From Anabaena sp. FACHB-1237 (GTDB lineage: Bacteria; Cyanobacteriota; Cyanobacteriia; Cyanobacteriales; Nostocaceae), in NCBI RefSeq assembly GCF_014696225.1, contig NZ_JACJPV010000003.1:104190-136189 (forward strand): a DNA stretch of 32,000 nt, given 5' to 3'. Shown piece by piece: positions 22,903-27,759 of the stretch; position 1 is the first letter of the stretch; each line of letters starts with the position of its first letter. A program made the translations under genes and the position numbers. The notes beneath the pieces were generated by a model. That model did no database searches and was not told the origin of the DNA. It saw nothing but the letters and a program-made list of their open reading frames with translations.

Positions 22903-23139
22903 AGTGCTTCTTGATCTTAAATATGGGCAATTATGGCAATTGTACTACATAAAACCATCAATGTCAAGTATTATTTATATGCTTATACCCCTACATTATT
23001 TAAGAAGTTGGGGATATTAAGGTCTATGAGTGAATTATTAATTACCACTATATACAATAAATGCTAACTAATGCACTCTTATAAACTGATTTGACGTGAT
23101 TTGACACAAAACGTTAGTGCGATAAAGATAGTTCTTCCT

Positions 23140-23179
23140 CATCATATAGTATGATATCAGATTTTTTGATATTTGTCAA
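23140..23179 (-). promoter_or_regulatory. Dispersed promoter + mini-ORF module, copy 4 (diverged), upstream of the FkbM gene
   Basis: On the minus strand: TTGACA (23179-23174), a 17-nt spacer, TATCAT (23156-23151), then ATGATGAGGAAGAACTATCTTTATCGC. Confidence 0.5.
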
Positions 23180-23258
23180 CAAGGGTGAAAATTTGGGCGC
23201 GATTTTTTTTATAGTTAATATCAAGCTACTTTTATAGTATCTGCCATTGAGTAACAGC

Positions 23259-24359
23259 CTATAACAAAGATAATTGATCACTGGGAGGTGTAAAACCTAA
23301 ATGTTTATAGGCAGCTTTTGTAGCAATTCTACCTCTAGGAGTGCGACTTAAATAGCCAATTTGCATTAAATACGGTTCATAGACTTCTTCTATGGTTTGG
23401 GTATCTTCTCCAGTAGTGGCCGCAATAGTTTCTAAACCTACAGGACCACCATTAAAATTCTCAATAATGACACTGAGCATTTTTCTATCAGTCCAGTCTA
23501 AACCACCTGGATCAACTTGAAACAGTTGTAATGCTTCTGATGCAACATTTTTATTGATTTCTTGGCATATTTTAACCTCCGCATAATCACGGACTCTTTT
23601 TAGTAGTCTATTCGCTATTCTTGGTGTTCCTCGTGAACGTTGAGCAATTTCCGTAGCACCATCTAAGCTAATAGATGTTTGCAGTAATTCCGCAGTACGT
23701 AATACTATTTGAGTTAATTCTTCAACTTCATAAAAGCGCAACTTTTGAATTAAGCCAAAGCGATCGCGCAATGGAGAGGTCAAAGCTCCGACGCGAGTTG
23801 TGGCTCCCACTAGGGTAAATTTAGAGAGGGGAATACTTCTTATTTTCGCTGTTGGACCTTTACCCACTGTAATATCTAAGCGGTAATCTTCCATTGCGGG
23901 ATAAAGAATCTCTTCTGTCATCCGTGATAACCGATGTATTTCATCTATAAATAAAATATCACCTGGTTGAAGATTAACTAATAAACCGACAATATCACGA
24001 GGACGTTCTAAAGCTGGTGCGCTGGTAATTTTGTAATTAACTCCCATTTCCGATGCTAAAATCATGGCCATAGTAGTTTTACCTAAACCTGGTGGTCCAT
24101 AAAGTAATAAATGATCGAGTGCATGATTTCGAGAACGTGCAGCTTTAATGGCAATATCTAATACATCTTTTAAATCTTTTTGTCCGATATAATCAGCGAA
24201 TTTTTGCGGACGAATACTTTCTTCTGGCTTTCCTTGTTCGTCAAAAGCTGCTTCTGACTGTAGAATTTTGTCGTTGACGGTTTTTTTCTCAAGTTCTGTA
24301 GTTAACTGTGGTTCTCTATTTGGTTCAGAAGGCTGTTTTTTCGAGGAAATAATGGCCAT
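23259..24359 (-). CDS. ruvB: Holliday junction branch migration DNA helicase RuvB
   Basis: Motifs are [13 protein letters not shown] (Walker A), [10 protein letters not shown] (Walker B), TLVGATTR, and [16 protein letters not shown]. The start is taken at the ATG at 24359; the ORF-track start at 24371 is a TTG. Confidence 0.95.
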
Positions 24360-24663
24360 AATTATCAACAAGTAGAAAAAAGAAGCACCAAGGTTATTTT
24401 TACACTAATTATTCAGGTAAGTTTCAAATCGGTAATTAATATTTGCAATTAGTTGCAAAACTTTATAAATTTTCATGAGAACTGTGGTGAAAATTACATA
24501 AGTGTTTTCTACAACCCTTATAGAAATTTTCTATAGAATGTCTCTATAATACAGCACATTCTATCTACATGAGGAACAGGCAAGATGCCTGTGTTACAAG
24601 GGTTTTATCATTAACATCTGTACCTGATAATAACGGAAACTGCTGTAATTACCACCAAATGTT

Positions 24664-24916
24664 TATTAGAGATATGTTTTATTACTGGCACAGGTCAACA
24701 GACAAGAAATGATCAGTTAGAAGTAGAGTAGAAGTAGAAGTGGAGCGATCGCTGAATATTACCACAAAGCAAAACTCTAACATAGGTCTATTAGAGATAT
24801 GTTTTATTACTGGCACATTGGTAGGGGTGCGTCAACAGACAAGAAATGATCAGTTAGAAGTAGAGTAGAAGTAGAAGTGGAGCGATCGCTGAATATTACC
24901 ACAAAGCAAAACTCTA
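24664..24916. repeat. Direct tandem duplication of a ~116-nt unit (24664-24779 and 24789-24916; the second copy has a 12-nt insertion)
   Basis: Both copies read tattagagatatgttttattactggcaca...gtcaacagacaagaaatgatcagttagaagtagagtagaagtagaagtggagcgatcgctgaatattaccacaaagcaaaactcta. A degenerate third copy of the core lies at about 27321-27358. Confidence 0.9.
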
Positions 24917-25088
24917 CAGTTGTGGACTTATCAAATTTGGCGTTGCTGAATTGGGGTATGATGTTTATTCGCGTATCAGCGAAGCATTTGCGTGAGACGC
25001 AAAATTATATTGTACGGGTTTTAGGATTATACATATTAATGCGTAACTGCTTTAAGTTTTGATTTTGATAGATTGCGTTTTGATTGGT

Positions 25089-25157
25089 CTAGCTTATGCG
25101 ATAGAGATAGTTCTTCCTCATCAAGACTAGCATAACAGGTTTTTTCTATCTTGTCAA
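25089..25157 (-). promoter_or_regulatory. Dispersed promoter + mini-ORF module, copy 1, upstream (about 750 nt) of ruvB
   Basis: On the minus strand: TTGACA (25157-25152), a 17-nt spacer, TATGCT (25134-25129), 7 nt, then ATG AGG AAG AAC TAT CTC TAT CGC ATA AGC TAG (25121-25089). Confidence 0.55.
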
Positions 25158-25235
25158 GGGGTAAAAATGTTTGGGTGCTGGTTTTTTGGTGATAAATCAG
25201 AGTTTTTGGGTATTTTAAGATCAAGGAACTATCAA

Positions 25236-26873
25236 TTATTTGTTGTGGTTATTTATTGTGGTAGAAATTTCCTTACCCAGAGTGACAGGTTGATGAAAAT
25301 TAGATGTGTAACTAGAGATAACTTTGATGCTGGGTTGGATAATTCGTAAAGTGAGAGAAAGACGAACCTTACCACTGGTATTATATACCGAACGATGGAT
25401 AAGGTGATCGGTAAATAAGATAAATTCTCCAGGTTGTAGACATACAGGAATGGCATTTTCTTCTACTGCTGGAGGTACTTGAAAAAAATGATTACCACTA
25501 AAGGGGTCAGAAATTTTAATTTGACATTGGTTAATTTGATGTTTAGGGATATATTCAAAACCATTGGTAGAGGTTACTTCTGTTAAAGCGATATAAACAT
25601 TGAGAGTTTTTCCTTTTCCTGAAAGTAAGTTAGGATAAATGTCCCTGTGCCAAAAAGGTATTAATTGATGTGCGGGATAGTTTACCCATAATTCTGATCT
25701 CCATAGTTGTAATTCTGTACCCAAATAATGTTGTAATACTTGTAATAAAGCCTGATTTTGACATATTTTCCAGATTACATCAGAATCTAAATGTCTTTCC
25801 ATATAAAATTGACGTTTATACAGTTGAATTAATAATAAGATAATTGATCCGAAATTTAGACTTAGCAAAGATTTTACTGCTTGTAATAGGAGAATTTTAA
25901 CAGGAGGCTTGCCTAAAACATTTTTAAATATATGATCGCAAATCATGGTAATTTCGTCTTGACTTAATTTGAGACTGTACGGACCATAAATTTGATCATC
26001 GTGATTATCATGTTGCTGATTTTTGATTATAGGTTGAATGATAGTTTGATGACTCCCTGTCCATAGTAAACTTTTCTCTAATAGTTGTTGACATAATTGC
26101 TGATCTTGTGTTAAAATAGGCAGTGTAATTTCTTGACCATTTTGATTTAAAAATTTACCTGTAATATTGGCAAATTCTGGAGAAGTGGCGCATAAAATAT
26201 TAGGATAAGCTCCTTGTTGTGGGGTAAGTCCTATACCTAAATATTTGCTTAATTGATGACCTATTGTAATATTAGATTGTACAAAACCTGGATGAACTGC
26301 ATTTACAGTAATATTAGTAATTTTTTGATTAATAAAATGCTGAGAAAGTTGCTGAGTTAATAGCAATAAACAAAGTTTAGATTGATTATATGATGCAATA
26401 AAATTTAAGGGTGTTTTTTTAATAAATAAATCCCAGTTTACACTGGTGGGTTTTAATGCTAAATCTGAGGATACCATTATTATCCGACTAGGAGCAGATT
26501 CTGCTAGTTTATCTAATAATAAATATGTGAGGAGAAAATGACCTAAATAGTTTGTTCCCCAAATTAATTCAAATCCTTCTTCCGTAACTCCTTTGCCATA
26601 AAATATACCCGCATTATTGATGAGAATATGTAGGGGTAGGTTTTTTTGCTTAAAAATGTTAACACAGTTTCTAACTGATTCTAATGATGATAAATTTAAT
26701 GGTATGTATTCTATATTTGGATTATTTGTATTTTGACGAATATGTTGTATAGCTTGTATAGCTTTTTTCTGTGAACGACAAGCAATATAAACATGATATC
26801 CCATTTTAGCTAGTTCTAGGGATGTACTGAATCCTACTCCAGAATTGCCACCTGTTACTAAACAAACTCGCAT
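25236..26873 (-). CDS. Fusion protein: N-terminal short-chain dehydrogenase/reductase (SDR) + C-terminal PhyH-like Fe(II)/2-oxoglutarate dioxygenase
   Basis: 545 aa from the ATG at 26873, which has AGGA about 8 nt upstream. SDR motifs are VCLVTGGNSGVGF (TGxxxGxG), NNAG and YNQSK (YxxxK). The C-terminal half has FWHRD (HxD iron ligands) and a distal LIHRS His, as in phytanoyl-CoA-dioxygenase-type enzymes. The ORF-track start at 26993 is a TTG. Confidence 0.7.
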   Translation of the reverse strand: MRVCLVTGGNSGVGFSTSLELAKMGYHVYIACRSQKKAIQAIQHIRQNTNNPNIEYIPLNLSSLESVRNCVNIFKQKNLPLHILINNAGIFYGKGVTEEGFELIWGTNYLGHFLLTYLLLDKLAESAPSRIIMVSSDLALKPTSVNWDLFIKKTPLNFIASYNQSKLCLLLLTQQLSQHFINQKITNITVNAVHPGFVQSNITIGHQLSKYLGIGLTPQQGAYPNILCATSPEFANITGKFLNQNGQEITLPILTQDQQLCQQLLEKSLLWTGSHQTIIQPIIKNQQHDNHDDQIYGPYSLKLSQDEITMICDHIFKNVLGKPPVKILLLQAVKSLLSLNFGSIILLLIQLYKRQFYMERHLDSDVIWKICQNQALLQVLQHYLGTELQLWRSELWVNYPAHQLIPFWHRDIYPNLLSGKGKTLNVYIALTEVTSTNGFEYIPKHQINQCQIKISDPFSGNHFFQVPPAVEENAIPVCLQPGEFILFTDHLIHRSVYNTSGKVRLSLTLRIIQPSIKVISSYTSNFHQPVTLGKEISTTINNHNK

Positions 26874-27107
26874 AGTTAAATCCTGATGAATGCTTTTACT
26901 GATAAGACTATGAATTATACTATAGCAATCTGGTGCACTATAGTTATATTTAGTCTGGTAATTTTTCCTAGCGATGTCGCACAGTAGACGCAAAACTTTG
27001 ATGTTTTAATTCAGCTAGTTCAGCAATATGATATTTTTCTAATCTTTCTATCTATAAGTCTTTAAGTATTAAATATTTTAGTTTTGATAAGTCGCGTTTT
27101 GATTAAT

Positions 27108-27176
27108 TTAGCTTATACGATAGAGATAGTTCTTCCTCATCAAGATTAGCTTAACAGGTTTTTTCCATCTTGTCAA
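27108..27176 (-). promoter_or_regulatory. Dispersed promoter + mini-ORF module, copy 2, about 270 nt upstream of the SDR-dioxygenase gene
   Basis: On the minus strand: TTGACA (27176-27171), a 17-nt spacer, TAAGCT (27153-27148), 7 nt, then ATG AGG AAG AAC TAT CTC TAT CGT ATA AGC TAA (27140-27108). Confidence 0.55.
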
Positions 27177-27660
27177 GGGATAAAATTTTTTGGGACCCCC
27201 TTTTTTATTGATTGTGACTTGACAGGTCAAGATGTATAGTGTTGAGACGATTTAATATTTTAATAGAATATGATGATTATTTTGTGATGATGTTGTAAAG
27301 AGGTTGAGAGATGGTAAAAAATGATCAGTTAGAAGTGAAGTAAAGATAGAGCGATCGCAGTAGTACAAAAGCACAAGTCAACACTATAACATTTCCTAGT
27401 CTAATGAAATAGAAAATTATCTGGGTTCAATTATTTACCCTTTACTATAGTAGTGTGAGGAGTTGTTGAATTGGGGTGTGGTTATGATATTTATTTCGCG
27501 TATTAGCGAAAAAAGCACTCACATTAGGCGCAAAGGTTCAAATTTTGAATTTGTCAATTTCATACCTGAGTTTAGCAACGCCAATGTGATTTTTTTGTAA
27601 ACCTTTAAATCTTGGATATTCTGATTCTGACAAATTGTATTTTGATTAATTTAGCTTATA

Positions 27661-27729
27661 CGATAGAGATAGTTCTTCCTCATCGAGATTAGTGTAACAG
27701 GTTTTTTCCCTCTTGTCAAGGGGCGAAAA
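27661..27729 (-). promoter_or_regulatory. Dispersed promoter + mini-ORF module, copy 3, just downstream of the helicase gene's 3' end
   Basis: On the minus strand: TTGACA (27729-27724), a 17-nt spacer, TACACT (27706-27701), 7 nt, then ATG AGG AAG AAC TAT CTC TAT CGT ATA AGC TAA (27693-27661). Confidence 0.55.
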
Positions 27730-27759
27730 AAATTTCGCACGGACAAAAATTACATACTT

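Follow-up and report, generated by a model that had tools for sequence, protein, structure and literature searches.

Why should a few kilobases of one cyanobacterial genome repeat the same promoter and the same run of letters behind it four times over? The window considered here, a stretch of 32,000 nt from Anabaena sp. FACHB-1237, carries four such units on its minus strand, each made of TTGACA, a 17-nt spacer, TAnnnT, 6-7 nt and the block GATGAGGAAGAACTATCT, which starts at 23143, 25122, 27141 and 27684. Their parts, all on the minus strand, are as follows.

23099..23207, minus strand: copy A, whole repeat unit (23.1 kb); nhmmer match C23:127288-127396, E = 6.6e-14; alignment
23151..23179, minus strand: copy A promoter, TTGACA at 23174-23179, 17-nt spacer, TG-extended TATCAT at 23151-23156, 7-nt discriminator
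23126..23143, minus strand: copy A 18-nt invariant block GATGAGGAAGAACTATCT, predicted RNA +1 to +18
25076..25185, minus strand: copy B, whole repeat unit (25.1 kb); nhmmer E = 1e-27; repeat family D1 at 25057-25193
25129..25157, minus strand: copy B promoter, TTGACA, 17-nt spacer, TG-extended TATGCT, 6-nt discriminator
25105..25122, minus strand: copy B 18-nt invariant block
27094..27207, minus strand: copy C, whole repeat unit (27.1 kb); nhmmer E = 1.6e-27; D1 at 27076-27212
27148..27176, minus strand: copy C promoter, TTGACA, 17-nt spacer, TG-extended TAAGCT, 6-nt discriminator (sequence read)
27124..27141, minus strand: copy C 18-nt invariant block
27638..27742, minus strand: copy D, whole repeat unit (27.7 kb); nhmmer E = 1.2e-25; D1 at 27619-27755
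27691..27719, minus strand: copy D promoter, TTGACA, 17-nt spacer, TG-extended TACACT, 6-nt discriminator
27667..27684, minus strand: copy D 18-nt invariant block

Copy A lies between ruvB and an FkbM methyltransferase gene, copy B between the SDR-PhyH gene and ruvB, and copy C 267 nt upstream of the SDR-PhyH gene, while the block of copy D starts 76 nt after the stop codon of a DEAD/DSHCT helicase gene. Searching the window with the pattern ATGAGGAAGAACTATCTYTATCG returned exactly four matches, all on the minus strand (23120-23142, 25099-25121, 27118-27140 and 27661-27683), and none in 100 shuffles. The gap between the -10 hexamer and G+ATGAGG is 6 nt in copies B, C and D and 7 nt in copy A, the most diverged of the four, whose nearest relative is G000 C10:8506-. 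No intrinsic terminator follows the block in any of them. The original prediction described a portable unit, a promoter joined to a conserved block from the predicted transcription start, and this description stands, as do its four minus-strand copies with TTGACA and 17-nt spacer, their -10 hexamers (TATCAT, TATGCT, TAAGCT and TACACT), and the downstream genes with their distances (FkbM methyltransferase, ~240 nt; RuvB, ~750 nt; an SDR-PhyH fusion, ~267 and ~810 nt). Its fourth start, placed at 27693, belongs at 27683/27684, and its ~75-nt core was too short: the repeat unit spans ~105-115 nt by nhmmer, and the copies at 25.1, 27.1 and 27.7 kb have 137 nt in common at 73-84% identity.

These four belong to a far larger population. 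The 4.65-Mb genome holds 26-27 copies, every one of them intergenic, and the unit recurs in many related cyanobacteria that form blooms. At least 195 distinct copies make up the wider family, whose hosts are Dolichospermum, Anabaena, Cuspidothrix, Nodularia, Sphaerospermopsis, Calothrix and a few organisms outside the Nostocaceae. A survey with the 18-mer, allowing one mismatch at most, detected it in 23 of the 45 genomes sampled from the same family and in all nine belonging to one genus, at 11-30 copies apiece. A few other families also yielded matches; picocyanobacteria and the non-photosynthetic classes gave none, and a reversed-pattern control ~0. In other genomes the family also occurs as tandem arrays, 2-4 units long and repeating every ~140-290 nt. 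About 22 of the intergenic copies in this genome form a sublineage of ~110 bp, recognised by G at base 4 of the block and a tail of yTATCGCATAAGC, six variable bases and AATCAAAA. No Rfam family matches the unit and a literature search found no publication giving its sequence; it looks like a small or leader RNA family that had not previously been catalogued.

Promoter-like hexamer pairs are no rarity in this AT-rich window (31 observed against 28.5 expected), so the significance of the unit lies in what is conserved from copy to copy and not in a promoter match alone. The promoter combines an A/T tract near -50, TTGACA, a 17-bp spacer and a TGn-extended -10, and is by prediction very strong, near-consensus and of the housekeeping type. 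Within this genome, pairwise identity reaches 0.93 in the core block and 0.91 in the -35 hexamer and falls to 0.51-0.71 in the spacer, the -10 interior, the discriminator and the flanks; selection thus targets the -35 hexamer and the block, not the repeat in its entirety, and the earlier suggestion of selection in place of simple recent duplication is borne out. In a comparison of 127 copies, positions +1 to +18 carry ~2 bits of information and those from +19 on 0.65 bit at most, and the TG of the extended -10 is invariant despite not having been a search criterion. Each core position is at least 95% invariant among 195 copies, except for base 4 (A in 138, G in 57). Linkage to the promoter was measured on matches selected by the 18-mer alone: among 74, the full promoter stood at the fixed distance in 45, 14 were coincidences inside long ORFs, and of the remaining 15, ten retained at least TAnnnT at this spacing, all four units of one array (G027) among them. 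Two 18-mer-only matches from another genome (G032) possess TTGACA with a -10 that the promoter test missed, and six matches lie just ahead of a small ORF start, five of these coming from one orthologous locus. Because the block is inherited together with its promoter, fixed position alone cannot separate a function in RNA from one in DNA.

On balance, and with only modest assurance, we consider it probable that these are self-contained transcription units, spread across many Nostocales, in which the selected item is a non-coding RNA bearing an 18-nt tag at its 5' end. A strong promoter would be fused to an invariant initial transcribed sequence, GAU(A/G)AGGAAGAACUAUCU, with transcription predicted to fire at G+1 and so to set the 5' end; the RNA beyond +18 would vary from copy to copy, leaving as the selected part a purine-rich, largely unpaired tag with which, if this is true, all transcripts of the family begin. 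Units followed by an intrinsic terminator would yield sRNAs of 65-85 nt. In those lacking one, as in all four window copies, the tagged transcript would continue as a long leader into downstream sequence, and since it reads on, we propose that the unit would double as a portable outward-firing promoter. Some members carry strong terminators (-12 to -32 kcal/mol) and some end within 80 nt. A strong hairpin occurs within 160 nt downstream in 24-35% of 176 copies, compared with 14-28% of upstream controls and 3-7% of shuffles, so most members are not classic terminated sRNAs; a stricter terminator rule gave no excess over its controls. Of the roles originally offered, a small RNA gene family or a promoter cassette fits best, and a leader peptide does not. 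By analogy with the Yfr2 5' motif, the tag may act at the RNA level as a seed or as the binding site of a trans-acting factor. Exact 11-mer complements of the tag number 28 against ~18 expected, with no RNA partner standing out; G:U-tolerant helices number 680 against 672 in the control, and duplexes with rRNA, the 16S 3' tail and Yfr1 score inside the range of shuffled sequences or close to it.

That no RNA partner was found for the tag is what a DNA-level function would lead one to expect, and an 18-bp transcription factor site occupying +1 to +18, repressing or otherwise controlling all of these promoters as a regulon spread by cassette copying, is a possible though unlikely alternative. 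With ~10-30 copies per genome the set is regulon-sized, its co-oriented downstream genes are diverse (91 ORFs in 61 clusters), and outer inverted half-sites, GATA-N9-TATC, can be read in the block, where the T-N11-A spacing is also satisfied. Yet invariance is as high across the asymmetric 9 bp in the middle, AGGAAGAAC, as in the 4-bp arms, the opposite of what dimeric operators usually show. Operator positions usually vary among independently evolved regulon members, whereas nearly all of the non-coding matches examined follow a promoter, or at any rate a -10, at a single spacing, save the six before a small ORF start. No candidate regulator emerged for this operator.

A little more doubtful is the proposal that the 18 nt merely serve the promoter, as an initial transcribed sequence helping RNA polymerase to escape from, or pause after, an otherwise over-tight consensus promoter; the unit as a whole would then be no more than the strongest portable promoter to be had, with an RNA tag that lacks a function of its own. 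Purine-rich initial transcribed sequences favour escape from promoters of the phage T5 N25 type; here the block always starts at +1 of a near-consensus extended -10 promoter, 13 of its 18 bases are purines (90% from +1 to +10), and both the arbitrary downstream sequence and the absence of a partner would be accounted for. Escape efficiency is a degenerate property, however, and should not keep 17 of the block's 18 positions at least 95% constant from genus to genus. Expression of a downstream gene is not a common purpose either, since nine of the 26 copies here face a convergent gene and others are terminated early. The original prediction had each copy upstream of a gene in sense: this is so in the window, but genome-wide the next gene is on the same strand in 17 of 26 cases and on the opposite strand in nine (binomial p = 0.17), so that orientation, which it had named as a check on a dedicated promoter role, is not consistently sense and counts against that role.

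Could the units instead be selfish, a MITE-like or otherwise mobile dispersed repeat of no use to its host, with a core that is uniform only because it spread recently from one master copy? Other dispersed intergenic repeats abound in the genome (families of ~190 and ~40-60 copies), none of 29 other Nostocaceae genomes has the ruvB-flanking copies, this genome alone is rich in the CGCATAAGC subtype, and one copy has decayed. We nevertheless judge this improbable: the same copies combine flanks at 51-71% pairwise identity with a core at 93%, which points to purifying selection on each copy and not to recency; loci upstream of ndhS, upstream of alr and beside an FAD-oxidoreductase gene are syntenic across genera; no terminal inverted repeats or target-site duplications were seen; and phage, plasmid and viral-contig collections gave no matches.

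Least tenable of all, and very improbable, is the conserved leaderless mini-ORF first proposed, in which an RNA starting at or next to the AUG would encode a leader peptide or micro-protein of ~10 residues: ATG does occupy bases 2-4 in 21 of the 26 copies here and the peptides read as claimed (MRKNYLYRIS in three window copies, which differ only by synonymous or stop-codon changes, and MRKNYLYR plus 16 more residues in the fourth), but five copies of this genome have lost the ATG, base 4 is A (ATA) in 138 of 195 family copies (~70%), including same-subtype copies of other genera, codon position 3 is as conserved as the others (majority frequency 0.98, against 0.98 and 0.96 at positions 1 and 2), lengths range from 6 to 42 aa with only MRKNYL, the nucleotide block itself, in common, and drift from residue 7 onward resembles that of the flanks. 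The G at base 4 creates the ATG, and with it the apparent mini-ORF of this genome's sublineage.

A 5'-tagged non-coding RNA would have a counterpart in the Yfr2 family (Rfam Cyano-1, RF01701; Voss et al. 2009, PMC2662882; Lambrecht et al. 2019, PMC6778093). Both are multi-copy non-coding RNA families under very strong promoters (predicted, in our case), with a short, highly conserved, unpaired, purine-rich 5' motif containing GAGGA or ANGGA ahead of a variable remainder, and in both some members would lie directly upstream of a gene, sharing a start site and reading through; the UGAGGA hexamer of the Yfr2 5' end even recurs in the G variant. By sequence the family is nonetheless comparable to Yfr2 and not a member of it: the Cyano-1 model matches two other loci in this genome and none of the family copies. 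The 5' motif is GAU(A/G)AGGAAGAACUAUCU rather than GUGUGAGGAG, predicted Yfr1 pairing reaches -10 to -12 kcal/mol, where the Yfr2 of this genome attains -21 (shuffles, -7.9 +/- 2.1), a long stem with a conserved central loop is missing, terminators are absent from most copies, and the family is found in a narrower range of hosts, mostly Nostocaceae, at far higher copy numbers.

NsiR1 is a heterocyst-specific tandem sRNA array upstream of hetF, as described, after Ionescu et al. 2010, in PMC3610870 and PMC4734099. Going by that description, both would be Nostocales sRNA genes with a promoter for each repeat, and both can form tandem arrays; our family is set apart by its mostly dispersed copies, its TTGACA housekeeping-type promoters and conservation confined to the first 18 nt. 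The NsiR1 promoter is HetR-dependent and not of the housekeeping type. The enterobacterial sibling sRNAs OmrA/OmrB and RybB, which are Hfq-dependent and pair with known mRNA targets through a conserved 5' seed, share the restriction of conservation to the extreme 5' end from +1, the rest being free to vary; no complementary target stands out for the tag, however, and, being purine-rich, it would not mask ribosome-binding sites.

Like the Correia elements of Neisseria and cyanobacterial MITEs such as Nezha, the units are short intergenic repeats present in tens of copies, with lineage-specific bursts and an outward-facing promoter placed beside unrelated genes; unlike them, they showed no terminal inverted repeats or target-site duplications, selection is strongest at the promoter hexamers and at +1 to +18, not at the element ends, and some loci keep their position across genera. 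The other dispersed intergenic repeats of this genome, those of the ~190-copy and ~40-60-copy families, share the same spacers.

The 23-nt string ATGAGGAAGAACTATCTYTATCG has exactly four matches in the window, all on the minus strand, and none in 100 shuffles. The A of its ATG lies at the following positions, the last of which the original prediction had placed at 27693 by a slip.

23142, minus strand: A of the ATG, first match
25121, minus strand: A of the ATG, second match
27140, minus strand: A of the ATG, third match
27683, minus strand: A of the ATG, fourth match

Each copy reads, in order, TTGACA, a 17-nt spacer, a -10 hexamer, 6 nt (7 nt in the 23.1-kb copy) and the block GATGAGGAAGAACTATCT, and the -10 is TG-extended in all four. 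String search and promoter positions confirm the observation of four repeated promoter-block copies, together with the TTGACA, the 17-nt spacing and the -10 hexamers (TATCAT, TATGCT, TAAGCT and TACACT) that had been named for them. Promoter-like hexamer pairs are common in this AT-rich stretch (31 found in the window against 28.5 expected), so a promoter match alone carries little weight; the weight rests rather on the pattern of conservation across copies. The genes flanking the four copies encode a DEAD/DSHCT helicase, an SDR-PhyH fusion, RuvB and an FkbM methyltransferase. No terminator was found 3' of any of the four, so that transcription, if the copies are active, would run toward the next gene.

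Across the Anabaena sp. FACHB-1237 assembly (4.65 Mb, 35% G+C, 99.98% complete), the genome-wide count proposed as a check on the prediction came to 26-27 copies, with BLAST, a mismatch-tolerant pattern search and nhmmer in agreement. All 26 of 26 are intergenic, in units of ~105-115 nt. About 22 belong to one type, made up of an upstream A/T tract, CCCTTGACA, a spacer ending in GAAAAAACCTGT, TAnnnT, 6 nt, the block and then a tail that runs yTATCGCATAAGC, six variable bases and AATCAAAA. Three more have other spacers, two of them (contig C12 at 156055, minus strand, and contig C21 at 45131, plus strand) each with a clean intrinsic terminator 70-85 nt beyond the start. The features of a SigA-type (sigma-70) promoter are present (-35 TTGACA, a spacer of 17 +/- 1 bp, -10 TAnnnT and an optional TGn), with 20 of 27 genome copies passing a strict rule. 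All four window copies are indeed sense to a gene, as had been claimed, but the orientation does not carry over to the genome as a whole, where 17 copies share a strand with the next ORF while the other 9 are opposed to it (p = 0.17).

Segment-wise pairwise identity over 18 in-register genome copies
Block (+1 to +18): 0.93
-35 hexamer: 0.91
Spacer: 0.71
-10 hexamer: 0.65
+19 to +32: 0.65
Discriminator: 0.61
+33 to +50: 0.51

As judged from these alignments, the identity profile is one of purifying selection acting on promoter contacts and block within each copy, not of recent copying. Joint decay of promoter and core showed a trend in the right direction that was not significant under a crude classification rule (Fisher p = 0.16). 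A decayed family member, in which the -10 and the 18-nt block are both mutated, lies at contig C4, 49941-50019.

In 127 copies from other genomes, information content is ~2 bits from +1 to +18 and at most 0.65 bit from +19 on, the sequence past +18 differing between copies. Conservation extends to positions that the search had left free: an A tract from -54 to -50, a T tract from -45 to -42, the A of TTGACA and the extended -10, whose TG reaches 2.0 bits. The heritable unit is therefore a full, predicted strong promoter plus the first 18 transcribed bases. Within the block, 17 of 18 positions are at least 95% invariant in 195 copies, the asymmetric centre included; it is 72% purine and shows no consistent pairing in predicted folds.

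Allowing one mismatch, the 18-mer GATRAGGAAGAACTATCT is present in 47 of 401 genomes of the phylum, including 23 of 45 from the host's own family and all nine of one genus (11-30 copies apiece), as well as a few other families of the host's order; it is absent from the sampled picocyanobacteria, non-photosynthetic classes gave two single matches, and a reversed-pattern control gave ~0. The exact pattern TTGAC-N18-TAnnnT-N6-block occurs in at least 107 stretches, and among the matches listed the hosts include Dolichospermum circinale, D. planctonicum, Cuspidothrix, Nodularia, Sphaerospermopsis, Calothrix NIES-2100 and several strains of Anabaena (A. cylindrica, A. azotica and UHCC isolates); one further locus, L224, is from Trichormus sp. 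NMC-1. Outside the Nostocaceae several matches are coincidences within conserved protein genes, while true promoter-linked copies occur in genome G032, which has 8, and in G027, where four units form a tandem array. When 74 matches in other genomes were gathered by the 18-mer without requiring a promoter, they divided as follows.

Promoter-blind matches by context
Full promoter at the fixed distance: 45
Within a long ORF: 14
Other: 15

Ten of the 15 in the last class, including the four array units of G027, retain at least TAnnnT at the fixed distance, and two G032 copies have TTGACA and a -10 that the test missed. Six matches of this class lie just 5' of a small ORF start, five of them at one orthologous locus. 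Coincidental matches include loci L047-L055 (families f11 and f18), where the 18-mer falls inside a conserved protein gene reading ...VDKEELS...; at that site a 45-nt stretch is duplicated in tandem and in frame in genome G315 (L054). Two to four family units also form tandem arrays with a period of ~140-290 nt, reminiscent of NsiR1-type arrays, at five places.

Genome G027, contig C112, 3271-3908: tandem array
Genome G196, contig C1, 2875071-2875419: tandem array
Genome G413, contig C1, 5638644-5638848: tandem array
Genome G262, contig C11, 23459-23870: tandem array
Genome G262, contig C12, 250714-251021: tandem array

The original interpretation of these copies had two parts, a portable promoter unit with an RNA-family reading, which stands, and a conserved leaderless peptide of ten codons, which does not. 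Read from base 2 of the block, the 26 genome copies yield peptides of 6-42 aa whose common part is only MRKNYL, a direct readout of the block; ten different residues occur at position 7, and the ATG is replaced by ACG, ATC or ATA in five of the 26. The majority base has a frequency of 0.976 at the first codon position, 0.960 at the second and 0.981 at the third, which shows no relaxation at third positions. Of 195 distinct family copies from many genomes, 138 have A at base 4 and 57 have G, which makes the usual reading AUA, and in other genera the host's subtype is found with either base. The mini-ORF is a by-product of a common A/G polymorphism.

What follows the block is mixed. A subset would be textbook sRNA genes of 65-85 nt in total, with the block, an AU-rich linker, a predicted ACCGC...GCGGU hairpin and a U run; hairpin and U run are clear at the two terminator-bearing host copies and at loci L019, L069, L074 and L113 of the family. 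Over the family, enrichment is modest, with a strong hairpin within 160 nt downstream of 24-35% of 176 copies against 14-28% in upstream control regions and 3-7% in shuffles, and tightening the terminator rule gave no advantage over controls. Some copies hold their place between lineages: the C12 copy of the host genome matches a locus in another genus, a copy upstream of ndhS is common to Anabaena sp. UHCC 0187 and Anabaena azotica, and a copy upstream of alr, the alanine racemase gene, occupies the same position in three lineages (contig C56 at 69071 of the host genome, L041; L189; L205). This host copy has counterparts in Anabaena sp. UHCC 0187 and in a MAG of the Nostocales, with the block identical and the spacer diverged. 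Between the alr-upstream copy and alr lies a second conserved leader block of ~45 nt, AAATTACCGGATCAAAGTTAAACTTCCTGATTAA. Co-oriented ORFs follow 91 of the 195 copies and fall into 61 clusters, the biggest having just 7 members (HDQFAKxYL-type proteins), and a dedicated promoter of one gene family is rejected; none of the three HDQFAKxYL-type genes of the host genome has a copy nearby. A tRNA promoter is likewise rejected, a tRNA lying within 600 nt of only 3 of 195 copies and always on the opposite strand.

A block that is at least 95% invariant at 17 of 18 positions and always placed at +1 suggests that the 5' end of an RNA is recognised by a specific partner. In its fullest form, which we put forward as speculative and rather unlikely, the 18-nt 5' end would serve as an address tag through which a dedicated factor (protein or RNA) co-controls a mixed set of sRNAs and mRNA leaders in bloom-forming Nostocales, spreading with its own promoter as a copyable cassette. 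If true, the tag would represent a new kind of post-transcriptional regulon, built through promoter-plus-tag duplication. Two serious alternatives place the function of the block in DNA or in initiation: it may be a DNA operator, or it may have a role in promoter escape. A genome-wide search for a complementary partner lent no support, with 28 exact 11-mers against ~18 expected and 680 G:U-tolerant helices against 672 in the control, and rRNA complementarity of the block was inside the null range. A selfish repeat would account for many short intergenic copies (26 of 26) at non-orthologous sites (none of 29 genomes near ruvB), traits that recall MITE or Correia elements; neither terminal inverted repeats nor target-site duplications were seen in a repeat search and the 26-copy alignment, and the unit edges are fuzzy. 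Other proposals also gained no support: Yfr2-type pairing with Yfr1 is predicted at -12.2 kcal/mol for the G variant and -10.4 for the A variant, where the Yfr2 RNAs of the genome itself reach -21 (shuffled cores -7.9 +/- 2.1), and on these duplex energies a Yfr1 sponge is rejected; a Shine-Dalgarno-like 5' stabiliser pairing with the 16S 3' tail reaches -5 kcal/mol against a shuffled mean of -4; a CsrA/RsmA decoy (ANGGA motifs) is rejected, PF02599 finding no csrA in the 99.98%-complete genome while detecting it in control genomes; and a phage, plasmid or viral source gave no matches.

The promoter-block units are apparently an undescribed family of a known kind, of which Yfr2 is the closest representative. 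Yfr2 is multi-copy; its promoter is very strong, its purine-rich 5' motif is conserved and unpaired, and it has members that start at the same site as a downstream gene (PMC2662882); the present family is likewise multi-copy, with a predicted strong promoter and some copies that would share their start site with a downstream gene. In contrast to Yfr2, whose unpaired 5' motif GUGAGGAG is a near-complement of the Yfr1 core ACUCCUCACAC and whose conserved loop motif tops a long central stem ahead of a terminator, the family copies fail the motif test, have no shared central stem and lose conservation after +18. Membership of Yfr2 is rejected on the Cyano-1 model, the motif and the Yfr1 pairing alike: Cyano-1 (RF01701) has no match in the window at the gathering threshold or at E up to 10, and its two matches in the host genome (contig C67, 108140-108221, and contig C23, 203451-203520) are canonical Yfr2 genes, neither at a family copy. 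The Yfr2 promoters of the host genome have an A6 tract and a TGT-extended -10 in the style of the promoter-block family, which hints at distant kinship. NsiR1 arrays and promoter-bearing MITEs each have one or two features in common with the family. A link to the 70-copy DGR ncRNA element of Nodularia is rejected because that element, in its published description, consists of the transcribed region (PMC3610870), whereas the family repeats include the promoter upstream of the start. No Rfam family matches the window (gathering threshold or E up to 10), and 20 family loci gave one tRNA only; a literature search by sequence with block variants returned unrelated papers, and the Nostoc PCC 7120 sRNA table gives coordinates without sequences.

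Should the predicted promoters prove active, Dolichospermum, Anabaena, Nodularia and bloom formers related to them would each make 10-30 abundant transcripts with identical first 18 bases, a second large cyanobacterial RNA family beside Yfr2, whose mechanism emerged only over a decade. The short tag could itself serve as a pulldown bait, and the unit would be a ready-made strong promoter cassette for filamentous cyanobacteria. In annotation, these intergenic units should be marked as promoter or ncRNA features, and no gene should be called from the ATG in this strain.

No block lies within 1.5 kb of ruvB in any of 29 other Nostocaceae genomes, and the FkbM methyltransferase gene has its own predicted proximal promoter (TTGACA-17-TACAAT, 22939-22967, minus strand, 37 nt 5' of the start codon), partially conserved in Anabaena azotica. 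The window copies are therefore lineage-specific additions, not ancestral promoters of the neighbouring genes; in an empty-site comparison the ruvB-fkbM spacers were too diverged for alignment. There is no family copy at the window's DGR. An exact Yfr1 core lies at 27453-27463 on the minus strand, ~220 nt downstream of the 27.7-kb copy; the genome has 4 occurrences of this 11-mer where roughly 2 would be expected, the real Yfr1 gene being at contig C20, 8991, minus strand, and the window match is probably due to chance. A ~105-nt dispersed repeat with ~190 genome copies, one at 24546-24651, looks MITE-like and is no relative of the promoter unit. Another intergenic repeat, likewise dispersed, contains CGCGAATAAACATCATACCCCAATTCAGCAACGCC, has ~40-60 genome copies and occurs at 24936-25015 and 27450-27599, and the two spacers around the SDR-PhyH gene look paralogous because both hold this repeat and promoter units. 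Finally, a perfect 86-nt direct duplication (24694-24779 and 24831-24916, period 137 nt) lies 5' of ruvB.
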